From an uncultured delta proteobacterium (GTDB taxonomy: Bacteria; Desulfobacterota; Binatia; Binatales; Binataceae), in NCBI GenBank assembly GCA_963765675.1, contig CAVXXK010000005.1, forward strand, positions 4,957-68,956: a stretch of DNA of 64,000 bases. Direction: 5' to 3'. Of the stretch, positions 1 to 57,807 are shown piece after piece (within the stretch, counting starts at the first letter, position 1; each line of letters starts with the position of its first letter). The notes under the pieces were generated by a model. It ran no database searches and had not been told where the DNA came from. It worked only from the letters and a program-made list of their open reading frames with translations. The position numbers and the translations under genes are program-made.

Positions 1-394
1 CCAGGGCTTGCTCGAACGTAACATCACCGAGATACGCACAATGCCGCAGCATCTTATACTGCGAGTATGCCCGGTCGACCGGGTTGCGCAGTGTAACGAT
101 TATTTTGCAATGAGGAAGATCGCGAGCGATCCGATCTAGTACGTCTTGACGGTGAAAATAAGTAGGACAAAACTCACCGATTCGCCGACCGGCCGGGCAG
201 TTGCGAAAATAGCCAGCATACCAAGTCAGCGATCGATCGTAGTACAAATCGAAGAATCGGCTTTCTTTGCTTAGAGGAAGGCCGACCTGATTCTTTAGTT
301 GTTCGTGCAGCCAGGTTGTCGCCGTTCGAATTGGACCTACTCCGATGAAATCAGGAAGTCGCGGCAAGCCGCTTTCATTCGGTATCGAATCCAT
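1..394 (-). CDS. sulfotransferase family protein (N-terminal 131 codons; gene runs off left edge)
   Basis: Own minus-strand translation from ATG at 394..392: MDSIPNESGLPRLPDFIGVGPIRTATTWLHEQLKN...CKIIVTLRNPVDRAYSQYKMLRH. GVGPIRTATTW resembles the PAPS 5'-phosphosulfate loop (PKxGTTW). RNPVDRAYSxY resembles the 3'-phosphate-binding motif. It is not in the ORF track because no stop codon lies inside the window. Confidence 0.7.
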   Translation of the reverse strand, partial: MDSIPNESGLPRLPDFIGVGPIRTATTWLHEQLKNQVGLPLSKESRFFDLYYDRSLTWYAGYFRNCPAGRRIGEFCPTYFHRQDVLDRIARDLPHCKIIVTLRNPVDRAYSQYKMLRHCAYLGDVTFEQAL

Positions 395-453
395 ATGCGG
401 GCGATCGAGGAGCGAAAAGTGAGACCAGACAGTAACTCCTGCCTGACAGCATT

Positions 454-1314
454 TCAGATGGACGCTGGCGATCCTTCGCTATCGTTCCGAAAGTACATTC
501 CGGAATAGGCCTTGACGGTGCGTTCGGGGTGAAACGGGATGATGCAGGAAAATTCCGGTGTTTCCCAGCTGTCGATTAAAGAATATCCAAGTTCTTCGAA
601 AGCTCTAATGAAAGCGGTCCGGCCGTATATTTGGTACACACAAATAGCCGGACCCAAATTGTGCAGCGTCGCAAAAGAACGGCCCTCGCATAACGGAGTT
701 CGATTGATCAGAAGGTGTCGGGGTTTCGAAGGCATTTTTGATAGCGAGCGCCACAACGGAACCTCCAGAAACTGAAGCGAGCCCGACGCAAAAAGAACGT
801 CCGCGCCTGAACCGTCTTGAATCTCGGTCGTAAAACACAACCCATGCGTCTTCATCTGCTCCGCCAGTTTGCGTCCGTAAATCGCGGTCGCAGGAACTTC
901 ACAGACGCGCCAAACCATCCCAGCCGGGTATTCGAGGTATTTGTGAAATGAGTAGAAAGAAATACCGACATTGCCTCCGAAGTCGAACACTGTTGAATTT
1001 TCTTTGAGAAGTGGGGAAAGCCAATAGAGAATTGGATAGTCACTAGGCCAAAGCTGATCTATTTCGGAAGTGTGGCGGTTGGCCACCTCCGGATGGTCGT
1101 GTCCAACTCTGGAACCAACCGGAATGGCGTTTCGCGCCGTCTCAAAGCTGTCATATACTCCGGCAAACATTCGTGCCTTCGGACACTCATGACCAAAATG
1201 CTGTTCGTACTCAAATCGATGCCACGCGCGTAGGGGAGGTAGCCTTTCTTCAAGGGCGTTGACCAACGAACGAACCGCGCGCGACTGGAGAAGCGAACTT
1301 GCTAACTTTGCCAT
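454..1314 (-). CDS. SAM-dependent methyltransferase (TIGR04325 / LIC12133-like family, from memory)
   Basis: 286-aa ORF with the glycine-rich SAM motif VFDFGGNVG and class I methyltransferase spacing (VWRVCEVP ... DVLFASGSLQFLE). The start lies 5 nt after the stop of the TE fragment, which suggests operon coupling. Confidence 0.65.
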   Translation of the reverse strand: MAKLASSLLQSRAVRSLVNALEERLPPLRAWHRFEYEQHFGHECPKARMFAGVYDSFETARNAIPVGSRVGHDHPEVANRHTSEIDQLWPSDYPILYWLSPLLKENSTVFDFGGNVGISFYSFHKYLEYPAGMVWRVCEVPATAIYGRKLAEQMKTHGLCFTTEIQDGSGADVLFASGSLQFLEVPLWRSLSKMPSKPRHLLINRTPLCEGRSFATLHNLGPAICVYQIYGRTAFIRAFEELGYSLIDSWETPEFSCIIPFHPERTVKAYSGMYFRNDSEGSPASI

Positions 1315-1319
1315 TGCTA

Positions 1320-1814
1320 TTATCGATGTGACTGCGCAAGCCGCCGCATCGGACCGCCGGACTTACCCAGATTGTCTGTCTGTCCAGCTTGAAGACCGAA
1401 ATGTTGGACCGAGCCGAGCGCCGCCGGAAGCTCGGATCGAGAAGGAAGTTGGCCAACCATGCAAAACTCCAGCTTTTGCGCAAGGGCTTGGGCATTGGGA
1501 CCGGAGGTCATGTCGTCGTGATCGCCGGGTACCTCGTGCACCTCGACGCCTCCCGAGGCGAGTCCGCCCCAGCCTAACTGATAGTCCTTTATGCTTACCT
1601 GGGAATCCGGACGCGTGCGCAAAAGAGTCAAGTGTCCCGGATATAACTGAGGCGTATAGTGAGCGGCAGCGAAGGCGTTGATGTCATGCATAGTTCCAAT
1701 ATGTTGCGGAACGGTCCGTCCCAACGCACGGTAGACTTCATAAATGATTTTAGTGACCCGCTTCTTCACGGCCGTGCGCGCATACTGCCATCGCCCCGGG
1801 CCGCGCAGCACCAT
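1320..1814 (-). CDS. C-terminal half of the NRPS thioesterase domain, out of frame with 1750..6918 (frame change near 1830-1845)
   Basis: The 164-aa ORF contains the TE catalytic-His region (VHEVPGDHDDM). The nucleophile motif GYSFGG lies in the other frame, at the end of the 1722-aa ORF. The two ORFs overlap by 65 nt. Confidence 0.75.
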   Translation of the reverse strand: MVLRGPGRWQYARTAVKKRVTKIIYEVYRALGRTVPQHIGTMHDINAFAAAHYTPQLYPGHLTLLRTRPDSQVSIKDYQLGWGGLASGGVEVHEVPGDHDDMTSGPNAQALAQKLEFCMVGQLPSRSELPAALGSVQHFGLQAGQTDNLGKSGGPMRRLAQSHR

Positions 1815-4800
1815 GCCGATCCGCGACCGGTAGCGATCCGATCTTCGCCCTCGCGTCCATCGATTTGAGTGACTGCCAGTGGTAGTGCCATTCGGGAGAA
1901 TCTAGCAGGGCCAAAAGACCAATAGTGTCTCCTTGCTGTATTAATTGGCGCCCCATTTCAAAAGTAACGAGGCCGCCGAACGAATACCCGGCTAGATAGT
2001 AAGGACCTGACGGCTGCTTTGTCTTGATTTCGCGAATATAGTGCGCCGCCATATCTTCCAGACGAGTCAGATATGGTTGCGACCCGTCCAGACCCGGTGG
2101 CTGCAAGGCAAACAAGGGACGGTCCGGGTGAAGGTAGCGCGTCAAGTCATTAAAGCGAATTACGTTTCCGCCAAGGCCGGAGATTATGTATAGCGGCGGG
2201 AGCGAACCACTGTGCCGGATTGCTACCAGTGACGACGACGGCGGCCTCCATCCATCCTGGCGCAAGATTTCAGCGAGCCCCTGGATGCTCGGTGTATCAA
2301 GCAGTGTGGATAGGGGCAACTTGGTCCCCCAACGCTGATTGATCCTCGAGAACAGCCGCATAGCAAGTAGCGAATGACCGCCGAGATGAAAGAAGTTGTC
2401 AGTAACCCTGATTTGTCGGACCCCGAGAACCTCCTCCCAGATTTCGATCAGCTCCGCTTCGAGCGAATCGCGATGTGCCTTGGGCAGGTGAGTGCGCTCG
2501 CTGTCGATTGCATCTTCTGTAGCCAATGCAGATCGACTTACGTGGCCATCCACATCTATCGGCAGCGAGTCTACGAATCGGAACTGAGAGACTTGAGGAC
2601 CATCTGGAAAAGATTCGGCTACTCGTTTCTTCAATCGCACCTCTAGTTCGCTTAAGGGCTTCGAAAAGGCAATCCGGGCATCAACCACTGCGTAGACTTC
2701 AACCTGCTGGCATTCCGAGGCCCGCCCACATGGCACCGCTAGGACTTCCGACAGCGACGGTTCGAGCATCAGGGCCGCTTCCAACTCGCCCACGTGGGTC
2801 CGGAAGCCGCCAATATTGACGTGTCGGCTGGACGGACCTAAAACGTCGATTTTGCCGTCGGACAAATAACGCCCCAGTTCGCCCGTCCTGAACCACGTTC
2901 CATTGAGCGCTTTGGAAAATCGAAAACTCGCCGCAGTAGATTTCTCGTCGCCCAGGTAGCCGCTCGCGAGTTCCGGCCCTGCGATACATATCATCGCCGG
3001 CACGCCCGCGGGCACCGGCTGCATATTCTCGTCGAGCAATCGAATCGCGAACCCTGGCGATGGAACGCCCAGAGTCAGGGCCTGATCTTCAACTCTGCCC
3101 TCGCTCCGCGCTTCAAAGATCGCCGCATGGTGCGACACTTCAACGCCTCCGTACGACACGAGCAGACGAATCTGTCCTCGCGCGACGCGTTGAAATGCAG
3201 CCACCGCGAGTTTCGACGGTCTGTCACCATAAAGGACAATCTTCTGAACGCATTGCGGAAAATCACGTCTCTCTTTCCCACCGCGCAATATCATGCGCTG
3301 CCAGAATCGAGTCGGCAGGATCAGCACACTGCATCGATGTCCTTCAACGAACTGCCGATAACGCGCGTCTGACTCCAATACGGTCGAAGGTACAAAAACG
3401 ATCGTGGCGCCAGCAATCAGCGATGAGAACACAAGCTCAACAGCAGGCGTCGAGTTAATCAATGCGATTCGATCCTCTGCGCGCAAACCGTAGGTCTCGA
3501 CGCCCGTCCATGCGCGGACATCAAACGCGCGCTGGCTGACTTGTGCTAGCTTTGAGTCGCTCGACGTCGACGATACCAACTGAATGATCGCCGTACGCGC
3601 GCCGTCCTCTTTGGACGACGTTCTCAGTGCGGCACACTCCGCGTTCACGTGCGTTTCATCGACACACACCACTTGCAGCCCGCGTCGGCGAAAAAGTTTT
3701 CGCCACCTTCTGCAAGTGATGACCGCCTTGATGCCATGCTCGTTCAACGCGCCCACACCGGCATTTTTCGAATCATCCGCGGGCAACAGCATAAACGCGG
3801 CACCGGCCTTGCCGGCCGCCAGCATGCCAATCACTAGATCTGGCAAATAGTCACTACAAATCGCGATTGTTCGGCTCGGAGCCAAATCCACTTTAACTAG
3901 CCGGCTCGCGAGTTGACTCGCACGATGATCAAGTTGCCCGTAGGTTAAAGTCTCATTGCCGGATATTATCGCTACTGCTTCAGACTTTTGACGAGCGAAC
4001 GATTCAATCCGACTGAGCGCCGGCTCGTGCTTCGCCGTTGCGGCGCCGAGACCGGCGCGGGAAATCATCTCGGACTCGTCAGTAGTCAGAATCGGAATTT
4101 GATTGATCCGCTGCTCCGGGTCGCAGAGAACGCAGTCTATGATCTGTTGAAAATGGCCGAGCATTCTCCGAGCCGTGCTCGCGTCAAACAAATCGGGCTT
4201 ATATTCCAATCGCGCAACGATCTCTCCGTCGCGCTCAAACGTTGCTAAATGGAGATCGAATTCGGTTCCAGAGCAATGCCACGTGATCGGAGTCCAACGA
4301 CACTCCTGAGTCTGTATGGTCTGCAAAAAGGCGACCTGATGAAAGAAATAGAATTGGAACAACGGATTGCGGCCTTGTATCTGCTCGACCTGTAGCTCGT
4401 CGACCAGATAGCGAAACGGTAAGTCCTTATGAGCCAACGCTTCTAGAGTCACCTCTCTGATGCGATGCACCAACTCGCTGAAAGAAGGATTTCCGTGAAG
4501 GCTGGTCCGCAGGCTTATCGGATACGCGAAGGATCCAACGATGCTCTCGGCGTCATCTGTCCGGCCCGACACGGGCGAACCTACTAAAATATCTTCCTGT
4601 CCGGTATAGCGTTTCAGCATCAACTTGAAGATCGCCAAGAAGAGCATGAAGGTCGTGATCTCCTCGCGTTTACAGAAGTCCTTCACAGCAACGACAGAAG
4701 CTCCGGCTATGTGGACGGTTTCGGTCGCACCTCGGGATACGAGTGCTGGCCGAAGCGGTCGGTCGCCCGGCAGATCGAGCAATGGTAGCCGGCCTTGAAG

Positions 4801-6918
4801 CTGCTTTTTCCAGTAGCTGAGGTACGGTTCAAAGTCGGCATTTTTGAGCCACTCGCTCTGCCAGTGCGAAAAGTCCGCGTACTGGAGAACGGAATCAGAA
4901 AGCGGCGAAGCCAAACCCTGTGAGTATGCGTCGTAGAGCGTGGTCAATTCGCGAACCACGATTCCGCTGGTCCATCCGTCGCAAACTATATGGGGCATCG
5001 TGAGCATCAAGATGTGCTCGCGCTCCTCCAGCTGGATAAGTCCCGCGCGAAAAATTGGACCTTGCGCGAGATTAAATGGCCGAACTGCCTCCTCACGAAT
5101 CAATTCTTGCGCCCTAGATTCTCGCTCGGTCTCGGAGGCGATTCGGAGATCCACCACTTCTAAGCTCGCGTCGTAGGGCGGGTGAATCACTTGCATCGGT
5201 TCGTCGTTCAACACGGAAAAAGTGGTCCGCAGCATCTCGTGACGCTTCACCAGATCCGTAAGACATCGGCGAAGCACAGTCGGGTCCAAGGTACCACTGA
5301 CCCTGAGCACTGCCGGCATATTGAGCATCGGATTACCCGGCATCAACTGCTCGAAAAGCCAAAAGCGCTGCTGGTTGATAGTGATCGGAAGGGCGTAGCT
5401 ATCAGACGCGGGCGACTCCGTCCCATCAGAGGCGTTGAGTGCTGTGCCACAAGAAGAGGCGTCTAACGAGTCGGACGTTCCGCGATTCGGAGCTAACAGA
5501 CCATCTAGAATTGCGCTCGTTCGCGTCGCCGGGAGATCAGTAGCTGTTTCCGACTTCGCTGGAACCAGCGCCAGCTGAAGTTCTGAGATCCGCTGATCTG
5601 GATTTCCTGCGACGCGCTCGAGCGTACCGCGATAGTTATCGAGCAATCCGCCGATAGTGCTAGGTTCGAATAGATCAGTATTGTATTCGCACGAGAGACG
5701 CCACCCCTCTGTGCGCATCACCAGGAAAATATTCAGTTCGTAGGGCGCGCCCTGCGATTTCGAGGGTATTGTGGTCAGCGTGATCCCTGAAAACTCCAGC
5801 GGTATGACCGCGTCGCGCTCGCAAATGAAGTTCAGCGGACAAAGGCCATGATGGCTCGGATAAACTTGAGGCTGAACCTCGGCAAGCAATTGTTCAAAGC
5901 GAAGGTTCTGGTTCACAAGCGATTCGGTTGCAGTCTTTTGTACGCGGCGCAGCAATTCGCAAAAGCTTGGATCGCCGGAAACATCGAACCGGAGAATCAC
6001 CGTGTTGATAAATAATCCGACCAGCGGCTCGAGGTCCAGGCTATCGCGTCCCGCTACTTGCGTGGACACTCCGAAGCTTGTTTGCCGCGTGTAGTGAAAC
6101 ACGAGGATGGCGAGGGCGGCCGCTGTAATCTGGAAAAACGTGGCACCTTCTTGATTAGCTATATGACCAAGGGAGTCACTGAGTTCCATTGGAAGCAGCG
6201 TCGATACGATCGCGGAATTGTAGGTTGGACGTTCAGATCTTGGACGGTCCGTAGGAAAGGTCGCAACGGGAAGTTGTGTTAGCTGTGTTCTCCAGTAAGA
6301 AAGATCATTTTTTACTTGTGCATCCTGCAAATGGTTGTGTTGCCAGATTGCATAGTCACCGTACTGAATCGTAAGTGGAGCAAGGTGCGGCTCCAGACGG
6401 TGGGAATATGCCGTGTAGAATTCTGCAAGTTCCTTTGCGATGACGCCGATCGACCAGTAGTCAGCAATCGAGTGATGAATCGTGAGAGTCATCACATAGT
6501 CGCAATCGCCGGCCTGCAGAAGACGGGCCCGCAGCAGAGGTCCGGCAGCCAAATCGAAGTGCTGATGTGCTGCCTCGAGGCAACGGCGGTCAACCGTGTC
6601 GGCGCGCTGAGCTTCAGGGAGGTGTCGGAGGTCTTCCATGGATAGCGTCACCGCCATCGAAGGAGCGATGATCTGAGATACGCGCCCATCGACGGTCGCG
6701 AGATTGGTTCGCAGGACCTCGTGGCGCTGGACGATTCCTTGTAGAGAGCGCTCGAGTATGGCCGGATCGAGCGGTCCCCGAAGTGCAAACCGCACAGCGA
6801 GATTCCATGCCGGATTGCCCGGACTTAGGCGGTCCAATGCCCAGAAACGTTCCTGTGCGAGCGATGCGGGCAGGACGTAGGTATCTCCGTGATCGAGATT
6901 CGTCGCATCACTGCTCAT
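1750..6918 (-). CDS. non-ribosomal peptide synthetase, C-C-A(degenerate)-T-TE(N-terminal half)
   Basis: 1722 aa. C1 is aa 13-445 (HHSIADYWS; nt ~5584-6882). C2 is aa 507-945 (PHIVCDGWTSG; nt ~4084-5400). The A-like domain is aa ~965-1465 (nt ~2524-4026) and has degenerate core motifs. T is aa ~1483-1552 (FFHLGGHSL). TE starts at aa ~1563 (GYSFGG). Confidence 0.93.
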   Translation of the reverse strand: MSSDATNLDHGDTYVLPASLAQERFWALDRLSPGNPAWNLAVRFALRGPLDPAILERSLQGIVQRHEVLRTNLATVDGRVSQIIAPSMAVTLSMEDLRHLPEAQRADTVDRRCLEAAHQHFDLAAGPLLRARLLQAGDCDYVMTLTIHHSIADYWSIGVIAKELAEFYTAYSHRLEPHLAPLTIQYGDYAIWQHNHLQDAQVKNDLSYWRTQLTQLPVATFPTDRPRSERPTYNSAIVSTLLPMELSDSLGHIANQEGATFFQITAAALAILVFHYTRQTSFGVSTQVAGRDSLDLEPLVGLFINTVILRFDVSGDPSFCELLRRVQKTATESLVNQNLRFEQLLAEVQPQVYPSHHGLCPLNFICERDAVIPLEFSGITLTTIPSKSQGAPYELNIFLVMRTEGWRLSCEYNTDLFEPSTIGGLLDNYRGTLERVAGNPDQRISELQLALVPAKSETATDLPATRTSAILDGLLAPNRGTSDSLDASSCGTALNASDGTESPASDSYALPITINQQRFWLFEQLMPGNPMLNMPAVLRVSGTLDPTVLRRCLTDLVKRHEMLRTTFSVLNDEPMQVIHPPYDASLEVVDLRIASETERESRAQELIREEAVRPFNLAQGPIFRAGLIQLEEREHILMLTMPHIVCDGWTSGIVVRELTTLYDAYSQGLASPLSDSVLQYADFSHWQSEWLKNADFEPYLSYWKKQLQGRLPLLDLPGDRPLRPALVSRGATETVHIAGASVVAVKDFCKREEITTFMLFLAIFKLMLKRYTGQEDILVGSPVSGRTDDAESIVGSFAYPISLRTSLHGNPSFSELVHRIREVTLEALAHKDLPFRYLVDELQVEQIQGRNPLFQFYFFHQVAFLQTIQTQECRWTPITWHCSGTEFDLHLATFERDGEIVARLEYKPDLFDASTARRMLGHFQQIIDCVLCDPEQRINQIPILTTDESEMISRAGLGAATAKHEPALSRIESFARQKSEAVAIISGNETLTYGQLDHRASQLASRLVKVDLAPSRTIAICSDYLPDLVIGMLAAGKAGAAFMLLPADDSKNAGVGALNEHGIKAVITCRRWRKLFRRRGLQVVCVDETHVNAECAALRTSSKEDGARTAIIQLVSSTSSDSKLAQVSQRAFDVRAWTGVETYGLRAEDRIALINSTPAVELVFSSLIAGATIVFVPSTVLESDARYRQFVEGHRCSVLILPTRFWQRMILRGGKERRDFPQCVQKIVLYGDRPSKLAVAAFQRVARGQIRLLVSYGGVEVSHHAAIFEARSEGRVEDQALTLGVPSPGFAIRLLDENMQPVPAGVPAMICIAGPELASGYLGDEKSTAASFRFSKALNGTWFRTGELGRYLSDGKIDVLGPSSRHVNIGGFRTHVGELEAALMLEPSLSEVLAVPCGRASECQQVEVYAVVDARIAFSKPLSELEVRLKKRVAESFPDGPQVSQFRFVDSLPIDVDGHVSRSALATEDAIDSERTHLPKAHRDSLEAELIEIWEEVLGVRQIRVTDNFFHLGGHSLLAMRLFSRINQRWGTKLPLSTLLDTPSIQGLAEILRQDGWRPPSSSLVAIRHSGSLPPLYIISGLGGNVIRFNDLTRYLHPDRPLFALQPPGLDGSQPYLTRLEDMAAHYIREIKTKQPSGPYYLAGYSFGGLVTFEMGRQLIQQGDTIGLLALLDSPEWHYHWQSLKSMDARAKIGSLPVADRHGAARPGAMAVCAHGREEAGH

Positions 6919-6946
6919 AAACGAACCTCATACTGGATTGTTAGGC

Positions 6947-12900: not shown

Positions 12901-15151
12901 CGGGAATACTTATCCGCACCGGATCCAGTAACCGGAGGAAGGGCTCCCGAGCCGTATCCATCATGCTCGAATGGAACGCGTGAGAGGTCCGCAGCCGCTG
13001 GCAGACGATTCCCTCGCTCCCAAGCCGCTGCTCCAGTTCCGCGATCGCTTCGCAGGGCCCCGCGACCACGGTGAGTGATGGACCATTGACCGCCGCGAGG
13101 TTCGCAGCGGGACCGATAAAGCGCGCGACATCATCCTCGCTCAGTCGGACCGATAGCATCGCTCCCCGAGGAAGGTCGTGCATCAAGGCGCCGCGCCCGG
13201 CGACCAGCTTAAGCGCGTCCTCGAGAGAAAAAACACCTGCCATGCATGCTGCGACGAATTCGCCAATGCTATGGCCGATCATTGCCTGTGGACGAATACC
13301 TAATTGAAGCCAGAGCTGCGCCAATGCGTATTCGACGACAAACAGCGCAGGTTGCGCGATGGCAGTATCGTTGATTTCTTCGTCGGTTGGCAATGTATAG
13401 TTGGAATCAAACAGATTTCTCAGATTCGGTCCCGAGCCTGCGACGAGGATCTGCAGACAAATGTCGACTTGCTTCCGAAACTCAGGCTCGGCGAAGTATA
13501 GTTGCCGCCCCATCCCAACGTATTGCGATCCCTGTCCAGGGAACATGAATGCGACCGCGAGACGATTAGACGGTGTGATCCGTGTGAGTACTCGTCGGCT
13601 GCCGCCTGCCAGCACCGTTACCGCGTCAGCGGTGTCGTGAATCACGGTCATTCGACGGGCCTCGAAAGAATGACGGCCCATCATAAGTGTATATGCAACG
13701 TCGGCTAATTCAGCAGTCGGATTGGCCACCAGACTATCGGCCAAGTTCGACGTCGCCGCGTTGAGTGCGGCCTCGGTTTTGGCGGACACCAATATCAGGT
13801 GGGCCCCACGCCTCGACTTTGTGGCGAGAGCTTCCGGCGCCTCTTCCATGACTACATGCGCGTTTGTGCCGCCGATTCCAAAGGCGCTCACGCCCGCGCG
13901 TAGGGGCGTGGTGCCGCGCTGCCACGGCGAGAGGGCCGTGTTCACATAGAACGGCGAGTCTTCCAGATTCAGTTTCGGATTGGCGCTCTCGAAGTGCAAT
14001 GTCGGCGGCAACATCCGATGATGCAGCGACATCGCGGTCTTAATCAGCCCGGTCACTCCCGCCGCAACGTCCAGATGCCCAACGTTGGTCTTTGCCGTAC
14101 CCAGCGCGCAGAACTGCCGCCGCGTGGTCGAACGTCGAAAGGCCTGTGTCAGTGCGGCAATCTCAATCGGATCGCCGAGCGGAGTTCCAGTGCCGTGCGC
14201 CTCGATATATGAGATCGAGGCCGGGTCCACGCCGGCCGCGGAATGTGCCATCGCGATTGCGCTGGCCTGGCCGTCGACTCCTGGTGCGGTAAAGCCGACC
14301 TTTGCGGCGCCATCGTTGGTTACTCCGAATCCTTTAATCACGGCGTAGATCCGATCCCGGTCGGCAACCGCCTCCTGAAAACGTTTCAGGAGAACCACCG
14401 CGGCGCCATCACCGAAAACTGTGCCCTGGCTCGCGGCGTCGAAGGTTCGGCAATGACCATCGGGCGATACCATCCCTCCCGGCTCGTATAGGTAGCCGCG
14501 CCTCTGCGGAAACGTGATCGAAACGCCGCCGGCTAGCGCCATATCACATTGATAGTTCTGCAGGCTGAGACATGCCTGCGATACGGCGACCAGTGAAGTA
14601 GAGCATCCGCAGTTAAGTGAGAATGCAGGTCCGCGCAAGTTCAGTTTGTAAGCGACCCGGGTCGGCAGAAATTCGAAATTGCTGCCCAGCGTAGTAATAA
14701 AGTTACTTACCTGATAACCGGCCGTATACTGAGAGATGTCATCGCGATTCGAGCATACGTGTTGTGCGAAGTAGCTATTGAAACTGCACCCCGCGAACAC
14801 CGCGGTAATACCCGTGTACACCAGCGGGTCATAGCCGGAATCTTCGAACGCATGCCAGCAGCACTCCAAAAACATCCGCTGTTGAGGGTCGATCAGCTCA
14901 GCCTCTTTCGGATAAATGCCGAAGAACGCGGCATCAAACTTGTCGGCATCCTCGATGATCGCGCGCGCGCGCACGTAGTTGGGCATCCCGGAAACCGCTG
15001 CGGCGTCATCGATTTCGAGCTCCCCCGGCGCAAAGTGAGTGATCGATTCAACGCCCGCGCATAGGTTGCGCCAGAACTCGTTGATGTCCCGAGCTCCCGG
15101 GAATCTGCCGGCCATCCCGATAATCGCGATGTCAGTCAGAGCGTCACTCAT
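6947..15151 (-). CDS. hybrid PKS-NRPS megasynthase, KS-AT-ACP-aminotransferase-C-A(Gly)-T
   Basis: 2734 aa. KS is aa 6-437 (GCSTSL Cys183, EAHGTGT, NVGH; nt 13841-15136). AT is aa 532-835 (GHSIGE, HAFH = malonyl type; nt 12647-13558). ACP is aa 951-1027 (GFDSL; nt 12071-12301). The PLP aminotransferase is aa ~1170-1617 (NTGSEAV, IFDEVVTGFR, YGKVLGGGLPIG; nt 10301-11644). C is aa 1664-2095 (HHIVCDGWS; nt 8867-10162). A is aa 2120-2610 (YTSGSTGKPKG, YGPTE, YRTGD, GRFDNQVKLRGFRIELGEIE, NGKLDR; nt 7322-8794). T is aa 2627-2695 (LGADSL; nt 7067-7273). Confidence 0.96.
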   Translation of the reverse strand: MSDALTDIAIIGMAGRFPGARDINEFWRNLCAGVESITHFAPGELEIDDAAAVSGMPNYVRARAIIEDADKFDAAFFGIYPKEAELIDPQQRMFLECCWHAFEDSGYDPLVYTGITAVFAGCSFNSYFAQHVCSNRDDISQYTAGYQVSNFITTLGSNFEFLPTRVAYKLNLRGPAFSLNCGCSTSLVAVSQACLSLQNYQCDMALAGGVSITFPQRRGYLYEPGGMVSPDGHCRTFDAASQGTVFGDGAAVVLLKRFQEAVADRDRIYAVIKGFGVTNDGAAKVGFTAPGVDGQASAIAMAHSAAGVDPASISYIEAHGTGTPLGDPIEIAALTQAFRRSTTRRQFCALGTAKTNVGHLDVAAGVTGLIKTAMSLHHRMLPPTLHFESANPKLNLEDSPFYVNTALSPWQRGTTPLRAGVSAFGIGGTNAHVVMEEAPEALATKSRRGAHLILVSAKTEAALNAATSNLADSLVANPTAELADVAYTLMMGRHSFEARRMTVIHDTADAVTVLAGGSRRVLTRITPSNRLAVAFMFPGQGSQYVGMGRQLYFAEPEFRKQVDICLQILVAGSGPNLRNLFDSNYTLPTDEEINDTAIAQPALFVVEYALAQLWLQLGIRPQAMIGHSIGEFVAACMAGVFSLEDALKLVAGRGALMHDLPRGAMLSVRLSEDDVARFIGPAANLAAVNGPSLTVVAGPCEAIAELEQRLGSEGIVCQRLRTSHAFHSSMMDTAREPFLRLLDPVRISIPEIPFLSSVTGDWITAREATDPEYWANHLRLPVRFSIGAAKLRAEDFALLEVGPGNTLSVLARQHQANNPDQLVIASMPGRNGQQTEEESVLNALGQLWLHGAQPNWSQIYAGDSRRRVSLPLYPFERKRFWCGPRPAARNADTLAGQEDSSRTSSTEKSGSDLESYKASLHASVNGQRPEDARAAGSSEGTAIQSPRLETRKARILSRLECIFEDLSGLRLGDAASGVTFLEFGFDSLFLTQVSQMLHAEFGLKITFRQLLDQLATLDALAAYLDEKLPPQALPSGASDIAELESSRSEHQLPCSNEAGPAGGTRAATRPADAAVASAGGGPDLQLLFKTQLQTLSDLMAKQLEVLRNTETKAFVAVPDQITDPRTVHVATAQREPVDGLNGSAAVKLHGPTPRKFIPFVPVEAGKARELTPLQSQHLRALVESYSRKTAGSKRLTQQHRSHLADPRVAAGFRLQWKEIVYPIVTVRSSGSKLWDVDGNEYIDLVNGYGPIMFGHAPDFVNRAIREQLDHGYETGPQSPLAGKVADLICDMTGMERVTFCNTGSEAVTAALRVARTITARSKIVLFTGAYHGMFDEVVVKGVNGPNGPRSLPVAPGIPREKVENVIVLDYGTPEALRYIEAHAGELAAVLVEPVQSRHPALQPIDFLKEVRRITRQSGTALIFDEVVTGFRVHRGGCQALFGIKADLAIYGKVLGGGLPIGVLAGTSAFMDALDGGTWNYGDNSYPETGVTFFAGTFVRHPLALAAAFAVLNHLNTAGPELWEHLANKTTHMADALNALFEEREVQAHVDTFGSIAYFTLPAELIHAGLLYYYLRARGVHIQEGFPLFLTTAHSDEDIARVIQAFRESVLEIQAAGFLPAPHSEPMELPRNGSVSHLNGNGITPEPPEPGLTSIKENTHTVPVRQAPLTESQKEIWLSAKLSEQASCCYNESFTLKLRGNLDVAAFLAAVDRVVARHEALRAKFDANGEYQQFVPDPKLVIPIVDLTPLDGQSREKRLAQFIADDARSPFDLERGPLVRANLIVVRPGEYRFIFTAHHIVCDGWSTNIILDEVRRLYNAACAGRSYELPEPMTFGAYAESQAKHFQSSNLSALETYWQEQFSTLPAFLELPLDRPRPATRSYEGATCRLRIPAESYRDIKLAGAQQKCTLFVMLLAAFQILLSRLSGQEDIVIGIPAAGQAALDGESLVGHCVNFLPLRGEVVNSLSAAQYLAQVRRTLLDAYEHQNYTYGRLIRKLPIKRDPSRLPLTEVQFNLERMGSGIEFSGLELTIEPNAKSFVNQDLFLNIIESADGLMLDCDYNTGLFDQATIERWLGHYATLLGAMSADPNQRISSLPLLSTAEHQRIIASWNDTQAEFPTERCVHQLFEAQAQRTPDAVAVVYEGRQLTYFELNHRADQLARHLQKLGVGVGMLVGVFVERSLDMVTALLGVLKTGAAYVPMDPTYPAERISFVLEDAKVPILLTQESLARSVPPGSRRVLYLDSHWSAITREDSENDPRPTVSSEDLAYVIYTSGSTGKPKGVEIPHRAVVNLLHSMSKTPGLGCHDTLLAVTTLSFDIAALEIFLPLTVGAKMVIASRAEASDGSQLLARLRQSGATAIQATPVTFALLIEAGWAERSTLKVLCGGEALSRELATQLLERTSSVWNMYGPTETTIWSSAIRVEPGPGPVPIGFPIDNTQFYVLDQAGQLAPIGCDGELYIGGAGVARGYLHQQALTSEKFIRDPFRVDGNERLYRTGDRVRRLTDGTLEFVGRFDNQVKLRGFRIELGEIESALAKHPGVTGAAVILREDTPGDRRLVAYVVSNQQALTVTAVREFLIGKLPDYMLPSAVVRLDSMPLTPNGKLDRCALPAPATVQFSRSHEFVGPRTASERTLAEIWAEILHLERVGIRDDLFELGADSLHIFQIAARATRAGMRVAAPLFFKYRTIEGLLAHAENENQNGTTIPMPAIVPVSRAKYRLSQTIVPDQKVGSS

Positions 15152-15193
15152 TGCAATCGATTCCGTTTGGACTCCATCATTTGAATCCGCGGA

Positions 15194-17125
15194 TCACCCC
15201 GCGCGTCGCGACAGCATTTCGCGCTGACGCCGAGCCCGAAGTTGCAGATCGTTGCCGACCGGCGAAAATTGGCTGTCGCCGCTCAGATGCTCGGCGAGGG
15301 TCGCAACGGTCGGGTATTGAAACAGATCCGTGATTATCAACTTTTCGGCGAGCAAGCGCTGCAGTTTGGAGTGGACCTCGATCAGTTGCAGCGAATCACC
15401 ACCGAGGTCGAAGAAGCTCGTGTCCACCTCAACCGCCGGCAGATGCAGGACATCGCGCCAGACCGAAGAGATTGTCGTTTCGATTTTGCTCAACCGCCCC
15501 GTGGGTTCTCGATTGGATTGTGAGGCCACCGCGTCTTCGCGAAGCCGCACGAGCGCATCACGATCGATCTTGCCATTGCGAGTCAGCGGAATTTCAGCGA
15601 CCGCCACGAACGCCGCCGGGATCATATAGTGCGGCAGCTTCTCCATAAGAAATGCGCGCAATTCTTGCTGCGCGGGTGCAGGGAACGAATGCGGCGTTAC
15701 ATATGCGACCAACCGCTTTTCCTCGCAGGTATCTTTTTCCGCCACGACCACGGCATCGCGGATGGCCGGATGCTGGCGCAGGGTCTCGGCAATCTCACCG
15801 GGTTCGATTCGATATCCAAATATTTTGACCTGATCGTCCATGCGTCCCAGAAATTCAAGGGCGCCATCGGCGCGATACCGGACGAGATCGCCGGTGCGAT
15901 AGAGGCGCTGCGAGGACTCCGCGGCCCAGGCGGGCACCACAAATTTTTCCGCAGTCAGATCGCCCTGGTTCAAGTACCCTCGAGCGACTCCATCACCACC
16001 GATGTAGAGCTCTCCAACTTCTCCCACCGCCACCTGATTGAACTCGGAATCCAGCACCCACACCGGGGTTCCGGCGATCGGAAATCCGATTGGAACCGAA
16101 GGTCCTTCCAGATATTCCGGGTGCGCAGTAAGACACACCGCAAAGGTCGTCGCCTCTGTCGGGCCATAACCATTTACGAGCCGGCAACCGGGCAACGCCG
16201 CGACCGCGGTGCGAAAATGCGCAAGCGATCCCGAATCGCCGCCAGTTACTAACTGCTTGAGTCGGCAGAGTGCATCTGGATGATGATCGATCATCAGATT
16301 GAACAATCCCGCCGGAAGCCAGACTGTGCTGATTTCATAACGGCGAATGGCCGCCGCGATATCCTCGAGCGCCGGCGTCCCCGGCGGCAGGAGCACCAGG
16401 CTGCCCCCGTTCAGCAAGGGTCCCCAGATTTCAAGTGTTGCCGCATCGAAGCAGACTGGCGCTAACTGCATGAACCGCTGGCCGGCGTCGAACGATAGAT
16501 AGTCCGTGTTTTTCACCAGGCGAATGACGCCGCGATGTTCGATCAGGACGCCCTTGGGCGAGCCGCTCGAGCCCGAGGTGTACATCACGTAGACAAGGTT
16601 GTTAGCAGCGACCCGTGCATTGAGATTAGCTCCGTCGCGTAATCCGATCGCGGCTGCTTCGCGATCGATTAGCAACAGCTTTGAGAGCTCATCCGGCAGT
16701 GACCCGATGCATGAGGAATCGGTGATCACGATCGGCGCGCGCGTATCCCTCAGCATGAATGCAAGGCGCTTGCGGGGATAATCGGGATCAAGCGGAACGT
16801 AAGCGCCACCGGCTTTGAGTACCGCGAGCATGGCGACCACTAAGTCGAATGAACGGCGCAGACAGACGCCGACCAATACTTCAGCCTGCACGCCCTGTGG
16901 GGCCAGATGGCGGGCCAGGCGATTGGCGCGCTCATTCAACTCACGGTATGTGATTTGCTCATCGCCCAGGATCAGCGCGATAGCCTCGGGGTTGTGAGCG
17001 GCCTGCTGCTCAAACCATCCATGGACCGTAGCGAGATGACTCTTTTCCGTACGCCGCCCGATGTCAGCCATTCGGCATTGGCCGTACCTCGATAGTGACG
17101 CTGACGATTCCGCACCCTTTACCAT
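15194..17125 (-). CDS. stand-alone NRPS adenylation-thiolation (A-T) protein
   Basis: Core motifs are YTSGSSGSPKG, GYGPTE, GELYIGGDGVARGY, YRTGD, GRMDDQVKIFGYRIEPGEI and NGKIDR, followed by the carrier motif LGGDSLQL. The ORF track extends to 17296 and overlaps the upstream gene. The ATG at 17125 (7 nt after the upstream stop) is preferred; the ATG at 17191 is an alternative. Confidence 0.9.
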   Translation of the reverse strand: MVKGAESSASLSRYGQCRMADIGRRTEKSHLATVHGWFEQQAAHNPEAIALILGDEQITYRELNERANRLARHLAPQGVQAEVLVGVCLRRSFDLVVAMLAVLKAGGAYVPLDPDYPRKRLAFMLRDTRAPIVITDSSCIGSLPDELSKLLLIDREAAAIGLRDGANLNARVAANNLVYVMYTSGSSGSPKGVLIEHRGVIRLVKNTDYLSFDAGQRFMQLAPVCFDAATLEIWGPLLNGGSLVLLPPGTPALEDIAAAIRRYEISTVWLPAGLFNLMIDHHPDALCRLKQLVTGGDSGSLAHFRTAVAALPGCRLVNGYGPTEATTFAVCLTAHPEYLEGPSVPIGFPIAGTPVWVLDSEFNQVAVGEVGELYIGGDGVARGYLNQGDLTAEKFVVPAWAAESSQRLYRTGDLVRYRADGALEFLGRMDDQVKIFGYRIEPGEIAETLRQHPAIRDAVVVAEKDTCEEKRLVAYVTPHSFPAPAQQELRAFLMEKLPHYMIPAAFVAVAEIPLTRNGKIDRDALVRLREDAVASQSNREPTGRLSKIETTISSVWRDVLHLPAVEVDTSFFDLGGDSLQLIEVHSKLQRLLAEKLIITDLFQYPTVATLAEHLSGDSQFSPVGNDLQLRARRQREMLSRRAG

Positions 17126-17132
17126 GCGCACG

Positions 17133-18824
17133 CTACGGCCCCAATTTGCCCGCGGTCTGTTCGCGTTCAATTCCGAAATCGCTTCTGACATTTCCAGCTC
17201 TAGCGACGCGGGTACGGTCTGCCCGACTCGGCAAGACTCTCTCCTTGCACCCGAATAATCTCTCCGCGACGATGCCGCGTTGGCAGGCCGTTGCAAGGAG
17301 CCGGTCTGATTCCACTATTGGATTGGAGAGATGGTCGTAGCGAATACTGCTGACGAACTGGAGCCACGGCTCCTGGCCCATCGCATATACGTAGAGCTCC
17401 CGGCAATTGAATTGCTCAACCAGGCCAAGCGCGCTCGAGTAGTCTGACGCGTTGGCTCGCCGCGACTGATCCATCGCTCGTTCCAACCGGCGGGTCAGCA
17501 ACGGACCATAGATCCAGCTTAGCGGTGCGCCGTCACATTCCATGCCGATGAACATCGTCTCGACATCGCCAATTTGATCGTGCACGTTCCGATACAGCGC
17601 GGGACTCAGGTTGCGCGAGTCCGCCAATAGCAGCATCGAATGGCAGCCACCCCGAACCAACCATGCGGTTTTGCTTCGGATAGCAAGGTCGCAGTGTTCA
17701 CCAGTGAATGGGATTGACTGGATGGAGCCGGAACCTAAGTCGATCGTTTCCATTTCGTCGATTTCGCGCACGTGTTTGAAGCCGCATGCCTCAAGGATCA
17801 GTTTCAGCGAAGGATCCTGAAGGGCACCGCCCGAGTTTTTAGGTACCAGGATGGTCCCGATTCGGTCCCGCAACTGGAGCAAAGTTTCCAGCAGGACATG
17901 ATCTTGATGCGCGTGCGTGAGCAGGACAAAGTCGATCGATTCAGGCAGGTCTGCGTAGGTGAATCGCTCGGACGCACCGTCGAAAGCGTAACCGATCGCC
18001 GGATCGGTGAGAATCGAGAAGTCACTGCTTTCAATAAGGACACATGCATGGCCGAAATATTTCCAGCTAACACCGGGCCCTTTATAGCTTGTAGATTTGC
18101 GGGGCTTTTCGTCTGTCAGGAATGACCTCAGGATAGCGTTGTTATGCTCTGATAGACCCAACACATCCCGAATTTCGCTGAAGGATGCCGGCTGGGACTT
18201 GAGGCGATATAAAGCGTCCACTGCGGCGCCGGCAAAGCGCACCCTCCAATTGATCGAATCCGGACTGGCGAGCCGCGGGGTGCTGAAAATGAACGGCCGA
18301 CCGTCGTCCTTGATTGCCGAAAGCATCAAGCTCTGGCCGTTCGGATCGTAGTATCGACTTGCATAAAGCAGCCGTTCGATAAACCTGTACGACGCCTGAT
18401 TTTGAAGATCGTAGCCGAGCTCAACGTAGCCCTGGAGCGCGGCCGGGACTAAACGATACAAGGGCTCCAGCGAGTACCCTTTCGCGTGATCGGTCAGCAA
18501 TGAATCGAGCTGGCCAATCGCGGCGGATAGCTCAATCAAATTATGCCGCGCAGCAATCGTATGATCGCGCAAAGCGGAAATTTCGGCGATTCGGGCATGC
18601 TCGAAACTCATGAACGGGCCGCCCGCCAGGTTTGGATCGCGTGCCGCTGCCGCGTGGCCATCTGGGTTGCTTAAGTAAGACTCCATTATCCGCAGATGAC
18701 GCTCAGTCAGATTGCGGGCGGAGGTTGCAGGCGCGACCAAATGCGGCCAAGCGTACCACTGATCGATCAGCGGTTCGACTGCGATATTTGGCCGCAGGTA
18801 TAGCTTGTCGGTACTACGATGCAC
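17133..18824 (-). CDS. MBL-fold diiron protein, CmlA-like amino acid beta-hydroxylase candidate
   Basis: 563 aa, with a ~250-aa N-terminal domain followed by a metallo-beta-lactamase fold. It has THAHQDH (H304, H306, D308, H309; nt 17898-17915) and downstream acidic residues E376 (FTGEH), D402 (LLADS) and E429 (GMECDG). It sits immediately upstream of a stand-alone A-T, like the CmlA/CmlP pair. Confidence 0.6.
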   Translation of the reverse strand: MHRSTDKLYLRPNIAVEPLIDQWYAWPHLVAPATSARNLTERHLRIMESYLSNPDGHAAAARDPNLAGGPFMSFEHARIAEISALRDHTIAARHNLIELSAAIGQLDSLLTDHAKGYSLEPLYRLVPAALQGYVELGYDLQNQASYRFIERLLYASRYYDPNGQSLMLSAIKDDGRPFIFSTPRLASPDSINWRVRFAGAAVDALYRLKSQPASFSEIRDVLGLSEHNNAILRSFLTDEKPRKSTSYKGPGVSWKYFGHACVLIESSDFSILTDPAIGYAFDGASERFTYADLPESIDFVLLTHAHQDHVLLETLLQLRDRIGTILVPKNSGGALQDPSLKLILEACGFKHVREIDEMETIDLGSGSIQSIPFTGEHCDLAIRSKTAWLVRGGCHSMLLLADSRNLSPALYRNVHDQIGDVETMFIGMECDGAPLSWIYGPLLTRRLERAMDQSRRANASDYSSALGLVEQFNCRELYVYAMGQEPWLQFVSSIRYDHLSNPIVESDRLLATACQRGIVAERLFGCKERVLPSRADRTRVARAGNVRSDFGIEREQTAGKLGP

Positions 18825-18944
18825 CGTGGTTTACGCCTTACTTCGTCATTAGAAACCTGATCTCATAAGCCATCCTCTGTCGCAGTTCCGCACCACGTGC
18901 CGCCCGTCCTCAGCGGATTGCAGACAAAGCTCCTCGAGCGGTGC

Positions 18945-19802
18945 CTAACGCGCCGCCGATGCACCAACGGCTCGGGAGGGTCGTACAAGTCGTGAAGGAT
19001 CAAGCTGCGTGAGCGGTTGCCGCCTCTCGGGCTTTGAATAGGCGGGCACGGCCTGAACCTGGCTTCCGACCTGTGTTTGGTTCCCGTTTGTGCCGAAGTT
19101 CCACTTGTTCAGCAAAAGGTATTGCTTCCCGCTGCGGCTCAGCAGTCCTGCTTCGGCCATTTCTGCGACCAGGCGGCTGACCATTGGTCTCGAGCACCCC
19201 ATCATCTCAGCCAAATCCTCATGTGCGAGGTCAGGAATCAGGATGGTTCCGCGGGCATCCTTTACCCCGAACCGCAGCGCCAGATCGCTCAGCACCACCT
19301 CAAGGCGCTGCCAGAAAGGCAGGTTGAGCAGTGTCGCGAACCAACGAAGATTCTGTGACCAGAAGGTATTTAGCGCCTGCAGAATTTCCACCAGCACCTC
19401 AGGTTCCAAGCCGCGTAGCAGGCGCGCCACTTGGTCACGGTTGATCAGCGCCACCGTGCATTTGCTCGCGCTTTGCACCTCGAAGAGCTGCGCACGTCGC
19501 GCCTTGGTATCGATATAATCGGCGTAGCCGATCAGTTCACCAGGTCCAGCCAAGCGCACCAATGTGCGGTTGCCGTCAGCGACCGAGCAATAGACCTTGA
19601 CGAAGCCGCTGAGAACGCAACCGAACAGATCATTGGTCGAGCCCTCGCTCAGGACCAAGACGCCTTTCTCGAAATTGACCGCTAAGTTGCGCTCGACGAT
19701 TTCGTCCGTGAATTCGGCGGAGATACCCCACGTAGCAAGATTGTTCCGAAGATGGGAAAACGCGTCGGCATGCATGCGGTTTGGGTTTGAGTTCAACTTC
19801 AT
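18945..19802 (-). CDS. Crp/Fnr family transcriptional regulator
   Basis: It has a cNMP-binding-like beta-roll (LVLSEGSTNDLFGCVLSGFVKVY...LAGPGELIGYAD) and a C-terminal HTH (HEDLAEMMGCSRPMVSRLVAEMAEAGLL). The start is set at ATG 19802, which is preceded by the strong RBS GGAGGAGAGG. The track ORF extends to 19994. Confidence 0.85.
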   Translation of the reverse strand: MKLNSNPNRMHADAFSHLRNNLATWGISAEFTDEIVERNLAVNFEKGVLVLSEGSTNDLFGCVLSGFVKVYCSVADGNRTLVRLAGPGELIGYADYIDTKARRAQLFEVQSASKCTVALINRDQVARLLRGLEPEVLVEILQALNTFWSQNLRWFATLLNLPFWQRLEVVLSDLALRFGVKDARGTILIPDLAHEDLAEMMGCSRPMVSRLVAEMAEAGLLSRSGKQYLLLNKWNFGTNGNQTQVGSQVQAVPAYSKPERRQPLTQLDPSRLVRPSRAVGASAAR

Positions 19803-20409
19803 TTTCGCCTCTCCTCCAAGCGCGATTATTTCAATTTTGGCATTTCCACCTCCACCTCCACCTCGTTGGCTTAGAGCGCCTATAAATACCTTTGAATGCC
19901 TATCACTTCTATTAGCGGCCTTACGGCTGCACACTCTACCTCCGAACTGCTTTGTATGTCCACGGTTAACAGTGGCTCTTCGATACCGCAGCATTAAATA
20001 GATAGATTTAGCTCCCCGTGTGACTAAAGGTGACGATAATGAGTAAAGTAAATCCAGCCTAACGGATCGAGCCGGATAGTCAATGAAAAATTTACGTACA
20101 TCGTGACCATCAGACCTCAGAATTTAGTGAAATATGACAGAGGAATTAGCGTCATGTTTCGAAAAGAGCTCCTGTCGGCTCGAGCCTGTCATCGTCTTGG
20201 TCTCCTCTGCTTGAAGCGATTCTCCTCAGCTATCCGCTCGCGTCGCCTACGCCGCGCAGCGTAGCCCTCAAGCTCCATAAAGCCCGCAGCTTCATGGCGG
20301 ACTGCCAGACATTGGATCTCAACGGCGGGTATTGTTAAGGCAGAGGAGCAACGGCGATTTTTGCTCAAAGTAGCAACGCCGAACCCGTCCGGATTTGAAG
20401 GAGCCAACG

Positions 20410-20799
20410 ATGACGCCAGTTCCGAGCGGAACAGAACTCGCCCGCCCATTTATGCCGGCGAAAGACTTTGATCTCTCGAAGAACTTCTATGAGACGCTAG
20501 GCTTCGAAAAACTTCTCGACGGAGACGTGGCGATCTTCAGGGCCGGATCCAGTAGTTTCATCCTTCAGCGCTATTATCAGAAGGACTGGGCTGAAAACTT
20601 TATGATGCAGCTCATGGTTGACGATCTTGATGCCTGGTGGACGCACATTGAGCGGCTTGATCTGCCGGGAAAATTCAAGGTTAAGCCTCCGCGCGCCCCG
20701 GCTATGCAGCCATGGGGCCTTCGGGTCGCTTATGTTTTCGATCCGTCCGGAGTGCTCTGGCACATCAGCGAACGGCGCGATGGCGCAATACAGGACTGA
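20410..20799 (+). CDS. VOC (glyoxalase/bleomycin-resistance) family protein
   Basis: ~129 aa with the pattern FYETLGFEK...FILQ...MQLMVDDLDAWW...DPSGVLWHI, typical of the VOC fold. The ATG at 20410 is preceded by GAAGGAG. Confidence 0.7.
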   Translation: MTPVPSGTELARPFMPAKDFDLSKNFYETLGFEKLLDGDVAIFRAGSSSFILQRYYQKDWAENFMMQLMVDDLDAWWTHIERLDLPGKFKVKPPRAPAMQPWGLRVAYVFDPSGVLWHISERRDGAIQD

Positions 20800-20829
20800 C
20801 GACCTGGCGCTCGCGAGAGTCCTGCTGAT

Positions 20830-21099
20830 TCAGGTTCCGAATCTTTCTGCGGCGCGAGCCTTCGCTTTTGCGGCCTCTTCTTCGCGATTTCTCAAGGGTG
20901 CAGCGGTTTCGAGCGAGCGAAGGAGACGCGCCGATATCCCCGCGATTTCATCAACCGCAGTCAGGAAGGTGGCTTCGTTCGCCTTCGACGGTTTATTGAA
21001 GCCGCTGATTTTTCTCACGAACTGAAGCGACGCAGCACGAATCTCTTCAGACGTGACCGGCGGATCGAAATTGAAGAGGATTTTGATATTTCTGCACAT
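20830..21099 (-). CDS. DUF2277 domain-containing protein
   Basis: The 89-aa ORF begins MCRNIKILFNFDPPVTSEEIRAASLQFVRKISGF, the characteristic N-terminus of the DUF2277 family as I recall it. Confidence 0.65.
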   Translation of the reverse strand: MCRNIKILFNFDPPVTSEEIRAASLQFVRKISGFNKPSKANEATFLTAVDEIAGISARLLRSLETAAPLRNREEEAAKAKARAAERFGT

Positions 21100-21189
21100 T
21101 TCCTTCCCGCTCTCCGATGTCGCCTGCTATATCACCGATAGTGAATTAACGTCGATAGTGGAGCGCTGTGACGCCGGAGACGATACGCG

Positions 21190-22198: not shown

Positions 22199-22221
22199 CC
22201 TGTCGCAACCGGGGAGGTCGC

Positions 22222-22390: not shown

Positions 22391-22402
22391 CGATCTCACC
22401 AG

Positions 22403-53818: not shown

Positions 53819-57807
<3,989 letters not shown>

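Follow-up and report, generated by a model that had tools for sequence, protein, structure and literature searches.

A hybrid non-ribosomal peptide–polyketide gene cluster with a predicted aminoacyl starter from a member of the Binataceae, and its relatives across bacterial phyla

What would a hybrid assembly line make if its polyketide module were primed by an amino acid and its last module could not load itself? The question is raised by seven genes at the left end of a 64,000-nucleotide stretch of DNA from an uncultured delta proteobacterium of the family Binataceae (assembly GCA_963765675.1, contig CAVXXK010000005.1, positions 4,957 to 68,956 of the forward strand). We call this whole stretch the window and give all positions in its coordinates; L-numbers denote fetched relative loci. 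We read the locus as a genuine, edge-cut cluster of non-ribosomal peptide synthetase (NRPS) genes together with polyketide synthase (PKS) genes, with a collinear pathway, in which a Val-like amino acid would be extended with one malonyl unit, transaminated and joined to Gly and then to a Gly loaded in trans before tailoring. The probability that we attach to this reading is about 0.6.

An open reading frame (ORF) listing bears out an earlier note on this DNA, which described seven minus-strand genes in the same direction with gaps of 5–120 nt; the gaps are 120, 7, 42, 28, 5 and 59 nt from right to left. By Pfam and motif scan the domains are those of a hybrid modular NRPS/type I PKS system, with all of the expected catalytic signatures present except in one degenerate adenylation domain (A*) and with a thioesterase that is present but frame-split. 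The profile searches also confirm three assignments made in the note from the letters of the sequence: the aminotransferase, the CmlA-like protein and the sulfotransferase. The note gave the extent of the cluster as 1–19802, which is not borne out: base 1 interrupts the seven-gene cluster, leaving it truncated on the left, and in relatives it continues leftwards.

Loading, extension and release

The PKS–NRPS (6947–15151, minus strand, as are all of the cluster genes; 2734 residues) has the string KS-AT-ACP-AMT-C-A-T (ketosynthase, acyltransferase, acyl carrier protein, aminotransferase, condensation, adenylation and thiolation domains) that had been proposed for it, with every domain found by Pfam and every catalytic motif in place. 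The KS (13988–15133) keeps its Cys, His and His in GCSTSL, HGTGT and NVGH, the AT (12713–13549) has GHSIG and the HAFH of the malonyl type, and the carrier Ser of the ACP lies in GFDSL (residues 984–988; about 12188–12202). The class III aminotransferase (10403–11488; Aminotran_3, 172.7 bits, residues 1222–1583) has the pyridoxal phosphate (PLP) lysine in YGKVLGGG (residues 1450–1457) and is placed between the ACP and a C domain, as in the β-amino modules of the iturin/mycosubtilin type. The protein is completed by this internal C domain (8834–10159, beginning at residue 1665; HHIVCDG), an A domain with intact A3, A5, A7 and A10 motifs (7340–8773) and a T domain found by Pfam (7067–7252). The code of the A domain, DILQLGMIWK, is that of Gly, and DILQLGMIWK or DILQLGMVWK is nearly invariant in the second A domain across the family described below.

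The stand-alone A-T (15194–17125), identified by Pfam, motifs and specificity code, likewise has intact A3, A5, A7 and A10 motifs. Its code in GrsA numbering is DALWVGGTFK, with Asp235 present, which is Val-like; together with the Gly code and the HAFH motif of the AT, it upholds the earlier prediction of a Val-like starter, a malonyl extension and Gly. In 20 related loci the KS has a homologue of the A-T fused to it in-frame, and in 28 more the homologue lies directly upstream of the KS; this identifies the stand-alone protein as the loader of the PKS module and supports the collinear order assumed in the note. The loader code differs between lineages, being Val-, Thr-, Pro-, Ser- or Ile-like.

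The individual parts are standard members of their families, and it is the combination of an aminoacyl starter with an aminotransferase that departs from the acyl starts of lipopeptides and microcystin. In MycA/ItuA of mycosubtilin and iturin and in McyE of microcystin, as here, a class III PLP aminotransferase stands between an ACP and the next C domain and converts a β-keto thioester into a β-amine. Those lines begin on a fatty acyl or polyketide chain introduced by FAAL or AL loading, whereas no loading by a fatty acyl-AMP ligase was found here and the starter sits on an aminoacyl carrier; the predicted product of the three modules (there are only three) is therefore a vicinal β,γ-diamino acid. 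The transamination that would yield it is inferred from the resemblance to the mycosubtilin-type aminotransferase domain.

Next to the loader, separated from it by only 7 nt, lies the gene for a CmlA-type non-haem diiron β-hydroxylase (17133–18824). The protein matches CmlA_N with 280.7 bits and has the metallo-β-lactamase fold (Pfam), aligns over its full length with CmlA (PDB code 4jo0; E = 2.5e-122) and with the diiron monooxygenase 8a90 (1e-132; a literature search gave no source for this entry), and keeps the diiron-site motif HxHxDH as HAHQDH (residues 304–309), in agreement with its initial identification as a CmlA-like diiron protein. A CmlA homologue occurs in only six family loci, and the loader is of the Val type in all six; with the gene abutting that of the A-T, this makes β-hydroxylation of Val on the loader carrier (T1) a reasonable proposal, and the enzyme probably acts there, as predicted from its context. 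The arrangement resembles that of CmlA and CmlP in chloramphenicol biosynthesis, where the same domains and metal motif are found and the gene also abuts an A-T gene. The partner differs: here it has a Val-like rather than an aryl amino acid code and serves a PKS module as its loader rather than being an A-T-R protein, and the activity of the Binataceae enzyme is a prediction from sequence.

The terminal NRPS (1320–6918) gives Pfam matches to two Condensation domains, AMP-binding (145 bits only), PP-binding and Thioesterase. Its first condensation domain, C3a (5554–6879), reads HHSIADY, with Tyr replacing the Gly of HHxxxDG; DY for DG is a feature of the window's group, and the second His is Gln or Leu in L055 and in Rhizobium and Bradyrhizobium relatives. 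The second, C3b (4063–5391; Pfam Condensation at residues 510–952), is canonical-looking, its PHIVCDG keeping the catalytic His in the form PHxxxDG. There follow A* (2509–4005), the carrier T3 (2266–2454; GGHSL) and a type I thioesterase (TE; 1320–2196). A* has no TSGxTGxPKG (A3, the P-loop) and no NxYGPTE (A5), and reads FRTGE for YRTGD and DGHVSR for NGKxDR, so that the A10 Lys is replaced by His. It shares 37% identity with its L055 orthologue, compared with 61–90% for all of the other domains, and is wholly missing, leaving C-C-T-TE, in L003/4, L013, L016, L019, L027, L037, L042, L063 and L075. Because of this motif loss, this divergence and this absence from at least ten relatives, A* is to all appearances dead and dispensable, and the loss of A3, A5 and A10 sustains the view that the last module has no functional-looking A domain. 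Where the last position of family loci has an intact A domain (L023, L052 and L060) it is specific for Gly, and the Gly for T3 probably comes in trans from the upstream Gly A domain.

In the resulting pathway the stand-alone A-T would activate a Val-like amino acid, and the adjacent CmlA-type enzyme would hydroxylate its β-carbon on the carrier. The KS would then accept the aminoacyl starter and add one malonyl unit, and the in-line aminotransferase would turn the β-keto group into an amine, giving a carrier-bound 3,4-diamino(-5-hydroxy-5-methyl)hexanoyl unit to which the internal C-A-T would append Gly. The terminal C-C-A*-T-TE, predicted to be incapable of self-loading, would receive Gly on T3 from the upstream A domain; its second C domain would form the last bond and the TE would free a short peptide. 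Methylation and sulfation would follow release, joined in relatives by JmjC-type hydroxylation and carbamoylation.

Tailoring genes and the cross-phylum family

The methyltransferase gene (454–1314; 286 residues) encodes a TIGR04325-family class I S-adenosylmethionine (SAM) methyltransferase, whose NCBIfam score of 199.7 bits exceeds the cutoff of 80. Searches of Pfam and of PDB sequences gave no match to it. An AF2 model built with 26 homologues has a pLDDT of 91.5, and Foldseek relates it with probability 1.0 to many class I SAM methyltransferases, none of them close; this fold and the TIGR04325 score together secure the assignment made in the note. The motif VFDFGGNVG is present, and orthologues conserve the first 48 residues of the protein. 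In 19 loci, drawn from several phyla, a TIGR04325 homologue adjoins the same synthetase.

Of the PAPS-type sulfotransferase only the N-terminal 131 codons lie within the window (1–394), the edge cutting the gene. The fragment matches Sulfotransfer_3 (35.9 bits) and Sulfotransfer_1 (24.8 bits), both above cutoff, and has both PAPS motifs (5'-PSB, GVGPIRTATT; 3'-PB, RNPVDRAYS), as befits the edge-cut sulfotransferase first proposed. It is 92% identical to P0256, and its orthologues have 282 residues; for a full-length orthologue, heparan-sulfate 3-O- and N-sulfotransferases come out as the best solved relatives, with E about 1e-13. A CurM-like role in creating a leaving group was considered and set aside, the match to the PKS sulfotransferase 4gox being weak (E = 1e-5) and other support lacking. 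At the other end of the cluster, the regulator (18945–19802) has the cNMP_binding and HTH_Crp_2 domains of the Crp/Fnr family to which it had been assigned. Its ORF extends to 19994; the alignment of orthologues, with 78 and 76% identity, begins at the first residue of the protein starting at 19802, which supports that start.

The leftward continuation in relatives varies. After the sulfotransferase there is a convergent JmjC/cupin hydroxylase gene in L091, and a JmjC/cupin gene followed by a carbamoyltransferase gene in L055 and L087. The contig carrying P0258 has a cupin gene preceding the sulfotransferase, together with a PAF-AH-like hydrolase, a carbamoyltransferase and another NRPS. In L087 (13830–20849) and L088, from a Binataceae relative, a second A-T and a KS-AT-KR PKS follow the carbamoyltransferase; this neighbourhood may be a supercluster or two adjacent clusters.

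The earlier note regarded the cluster as an orphan with an unusual combination of genes, and in this respect it has to be revised. The PKS–NRPS has about 100 near-full-length homologue clusters, which match it with 53–77% identity across 97% or more of the length and share its 11 Pfam families. Those homologues that are labelled come mostly from metagenome-assembled genomes (MAGs) of Acidobacteriota, the closest (77%) being labelled Candidatus Binataceae, as are close homologues of the methyltransferase and sulfotransferase. By these labels the window probably belongs to Binatia, and an acidobacterial source for it was rejected. Scanning species-representative genomes and mapping domains locally, we found the string A-T, then KS-AT-ACP-AMT-C-A(Gly)-T, then C-(C)-(A*)-T-(TE) recurring in a set of fetched loci, about 60 in number, that spans eight or more phyla. 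Its hosts include Acidobacteriota, Planctomycetes, Rhodothermales, Polyangiaceae and a cyanobacterium; among the Alpha-, Beta- and Gammaproteobacteria, Rhizobium, Bradyrhizobium, Agrobacterium, Rhodobacteraceae, Aquabacterium, Janthinobacterium, Nevskia and Dokdonella; and among the Bacteroidota, Parapedobacter, Hymenobacter, Spirosoma and Mucilaginibacter. The window cluster has the domain order, the Gly-coded A domain and the terminal module prone to A-domain loss that mark this family, and both its core and its TIGR04325 gene are widespread across phyla. Even its particular set of hydroxylase, sulfotransferase and Crp regulator recurs in Binataceae-labelled relatives; no family loci other than these close relatives of the window have the sulfotransferase or the Crp regulator.

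One member had been noticed before: C6XWU5 of Pedobacter heparinus appears in a 2013 survey as ‘A-CP-KS-AT-CP-PLP1, Nrp-Mal-Gly’, with no product (PMC3870968). The window shares with such members the domain order, the Gly code, the methyltransferase family and the tendency to lose the last A domain; its branch differs in adding the CmlA-type hydroxylase, the sulfotransferase and the Crp regulator and in retaining a dead A domain, and most other members sit among polysaccharide genes. By its gene content, then, the window cluster is a lineage-specific elaboration of a small multi-phylum assembly line. A literature search turned up no product described for the architecture (surveys of biosynthetic gene clusters from Antarctic soil and peatland and a Pseudovibrio paper held nothing specific), and each named NRPS/PKS equivalog of NCBIfam scored far below its cutoff. 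The expectation that the product is undescribed is thus probably right: no product is named in the papers found or by any NCBIfam equivalog.

Two variants of the family layout involve the tailoring genes or the end of the line. In the cyanobacterium Alkalinema (L068:15079–16991) the A-T-KS-AT-ACP-AMT and C-A-T genes flank a TIGR04325 methyltransferase gene and a cupin-like gene, a placement that links the two enzymes closely with the assembly line. In Rhizobium and Agrobacterium loci (L009:22443–24080, with homologues in L015, L026, L040 and L041) a GINT1_N glycosyltransferase-like protein follows a terminal C-T; this L009-type ending has no TE and its C motif is HQxxxDG.

Alternative readings

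Several points weigh against the collinear pathway with peptide tailoring. The tandem C domains without an intervening carrier are unexplained, and the motif of C3a is by its sequence non-canonical; the loading of T3 is a guess; and β-hydroxylation of Val is predicted from context only, the characterised CmlA substrate being an aryl amino acid. The left portion of the cluster lies beyond the window edge. No characterised orthologue was found in the literature or in NCBIfam (MIBiG and BiG-FAM lay outside that search). It is also uncertain that methylation and sulfation act on the peptide, and the frequent polysaccharide context (see below) suggests that the two enzymes may have substrates other than a free peptide.

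The terminal module without a working A domain admits a non-collinear order. That a stand-alone A-T with on-carrier tailoring feeds a terminal module devoid of an A domain is an established pattern, known from syringomycin (SyrB1, SyrB2, SyrC and SyrE), and tandem Cy-Cy domains are known from VibF of vibriobactin. The A-T and CmlA-type enzyme might by the same logic make β-hydroxy-Val for the last module, with the KS primed by an acyl group from elsewhere. The likeness extends to a terminal module that does not load itself and to two C-type domains in tandem that share one carrier; here, in contrast, there is no shuttle acyltransferase, the A-T is the PKS loader and the C domains are not cyclisation domains. 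The A-T homologue is fused in-frame to the KS or, in all other cases, directly upstream of it, and neither a fatty acyl-AMP ligase nor a shuttle acyltransferase is present among the cluster ORFs by Pfam. Relatives that lack CmlA keep the same A-less last module, and their intact last A domains are for Gly, not Val. We consider this order very improbable; SyrB1-like logic is disfavoured by the A-T-KS fusions and finds no SyrC-like gene in the cluster.

A different doubt is whether the cluster works at all. The terminal NRPS had been given as one gene, 1320–6918, and while its domain string stands, its single frame does not: the TE Ser (GYSFGG, 1972–1989) is encoded in a 1722-residue ORF (1750–6918) and the TE His (GDH, 1518–1526) in a 164-residue ORF (1320–1814) in another frame. 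The orthologues are single ORFs of 1875–1878 residues, intact in L055, L087 and L091. Alignment with L091, a near-orthologue with identical 5 nt and 59 nt gene gaps and a 92% identical sulfotransferase, covers 2,058 nt with 89.8% identity and 208 substitutions, and its sole gap lies at about 1836, where the window has one base more (GGATCGC, compared with GGACGC in L091); tblastn with the L055 protein also locates the frame switch. Were this frameshift real in the genome, the TE would be truncated past its Ser, no product would be released and the cluster would be dead. The frame is indeed broken in the sequence as given, and the site has no long homopolymer, so that it is not the most typical sequencing error. 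Against a dead cluster stand the single indel in the whole alignment and the 164 codons past the shift, which stay conserved at the protein level in the second frame. Several further genes within 10 kb also look frame-split. L001, another long contig, splits in the same genes, whereas L055, which shows the same percent identities to the window as L001 and so looks like one taxon with it, is intact. Taken together these observations favour either an error of assembly or a lesion of very recent date over old pseudogenisation, and we regard loss of the pathway in the genome as unlikely.

The third alternative concerns what the product is attached to. We clustered the flanking ORFs of some 60 loci of the family (61 with the window included; the tblastn count used 60). 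Recurrent neighbours are a Wzx flippase, Wzy, Wzz/GNVR, Bac_transf (the initiating sugar transferase), GT2, GT4, a DegT-type sugar aminotransferase, a sugar epimerase/dehydratase, a GFO oxidoreductase and a UDP-sugar dehydrogenase. With all but the last counted as polysaccharide families (Wzz standing for Wzz/GNVR), tblastn finds at least one within 10 kb in 34 of the 60 loci and at least two in 26, spanning Alpha-, Beta- and Gammaproteobacteria, Acidobacteriota, Bacteroidota, Rhodothermales, Polyangiaceae and one cyanobacterium. The product might thus be a peptide–polyketide substituent or primer attached to, or exported with, a Wzx/Wzy surface polysaccharide or glycolipid, with the methyl-, sulfo- and carbamoyltransferases acting on sugar. 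UDP-sugar dehydrogenase genes in L013, L019, L037, L062 and L063 point the same way, as do the GINT1-like glycosyltransferase that follows the synthetase in Rhizobium loci and the sulfotransferase-bearing L089, in which cupin, PAF-AH, GT4, Wzx-type flippase and YdjC genes follow the sulfotransferase, the GT4, Wzx and YdjC genes 5–9 kb past the last NRPS. The best solved relatives of the sulfotransferase sulfate glycans, and loader specificity varies by lineage, as do surface antigens. TIGR04325, named after the Leptospira gene LIC12133, is a family typical of O-antigen and lipopolysaccharide loci. A precedent is the carenaemin (cpl) locus of Collimonas arenae Cal35, in which the activity of a PKS–NRPS opening with KS-AT-aminotransferase depends genetically on a Wzy-type sugar-repeat locus (PMC8313283); it differs in being much larger (an 11-gene supraoperon with Gln, Ser and Leu modules), in having no aminoacyl loader and in its structure being unsolved, and it is not an orthologue.

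There are also counter-arguments. No glycan genes are visible in window positions 1–30 kb or in the stretches examined of the closest relatives, with no glycosyltransferase, Wzx or Wzy in the window, L001, L055, L087, L002 or L091. The TE domain points to ordinary release, a Wzx-type protein could be a mere exporter, and likeness to heparan-sulfate sulfotransferases, a comparison among solved relatives, does not identify a substrate. The in-data control for the polysaccharide association is unclean (Fisher P = 0.10): of the nine ‘control’ loci in which such genes occur, eight are themselves single-module C-A(Gly)-T-TE relatives, and for this reason we rejected the control as a clean test; multimodular cyanobacterial and Chloroflexi control loci have no polysaccharide genes. 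The single-module NRPSs (L069–L073, L081 and L084; e.g. L070:10001–13600), from Acidobacteriaceae, Sulfotelmatobacter and Verrucomicrobiia MAGs, lie beside Bac_transf and mostly also GT4 and a sugar epimerase, and their A domains are 60–62% identical to the window Gly A domain (40–60% in L069); Gly-NRPSs within polysaccharide loci seem to be a wider theme. Attachment to or export with a glycan is to our minds possible but tentative. We hold as doubtful the broader proposal of an unrecognised cross-phylum class in which NRPS–PKS β,γ-diamino-acid–Gly units would be attached to or exported via Wzx/Wzy pathways, with a serotype-like loader amino acid and with β-hydroxylation and sulfation in the window lineage (carbamoylation in its relatives). 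The collinear route to a released and tailored short peptide is the reading that we retain for the window.

Surroundings and significance

The Crp gene is the right end of the conserved synteny, and the genes beyond it are not syntenic with L055. Between it and the next gene lies about 1.4 kb without a convincing gene (19803–21189), in which tblastn detected no remnant of the second Crp paralogue of L055. To its right are a luciferase-like monooxygenase gene with an out-of-frame-looking tail of about 130 residues (21190–22473), an FMO/BVMO-like gene split in two overlapping ORFs (25137–26883) and an overlapping ORF pair on the same strand (28825–29721); these three frame-split-looking genes suggest an indel-prone assembly. 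Unrelated neighbours farther on encode a patatin-like phospholipase with a cyclic-nucleotide-binding domain (36497–38263), an RPE65-type carotenoid oxygenase (40059–41573) and two ATP-synthase alpha/beta-family proteins (49569–51128 and 53819–55393). No tRNA and no Rfam match was found anywhere in the window, which thus offers no RNA marker of taxonomic use. The G+C content over the cluster (positions 1–20000) is 53–59%, compared with 60–66% across much of the remaining window, which is compatible with horizontal acquisition.

Taken alone the cluster is unexceptional, orphan biosynthetic gene clusters being common in MAGs, and the pattern across the family is of greater interest. If our reading is true, the family adds a building block, a vicinal β,γ-diamino acid made by transamination of an aminoacyl–malonyl intermediate, for which we know of no characterised pathway. 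Soil Acidobacteriota and Binatia carry the family in abundance, and its culturable carriers (Rhizobium, Bradyrhizobium, Janthinobacterium, Parapedobacter and Hymenobacter) make the chemistry directly testable. The recurrence in polysaccharide loci raises the possibility that NRPS–PKS chemistry decorates surface glycans, which would matter for the ecology of soil and of plant–microbe interactions.

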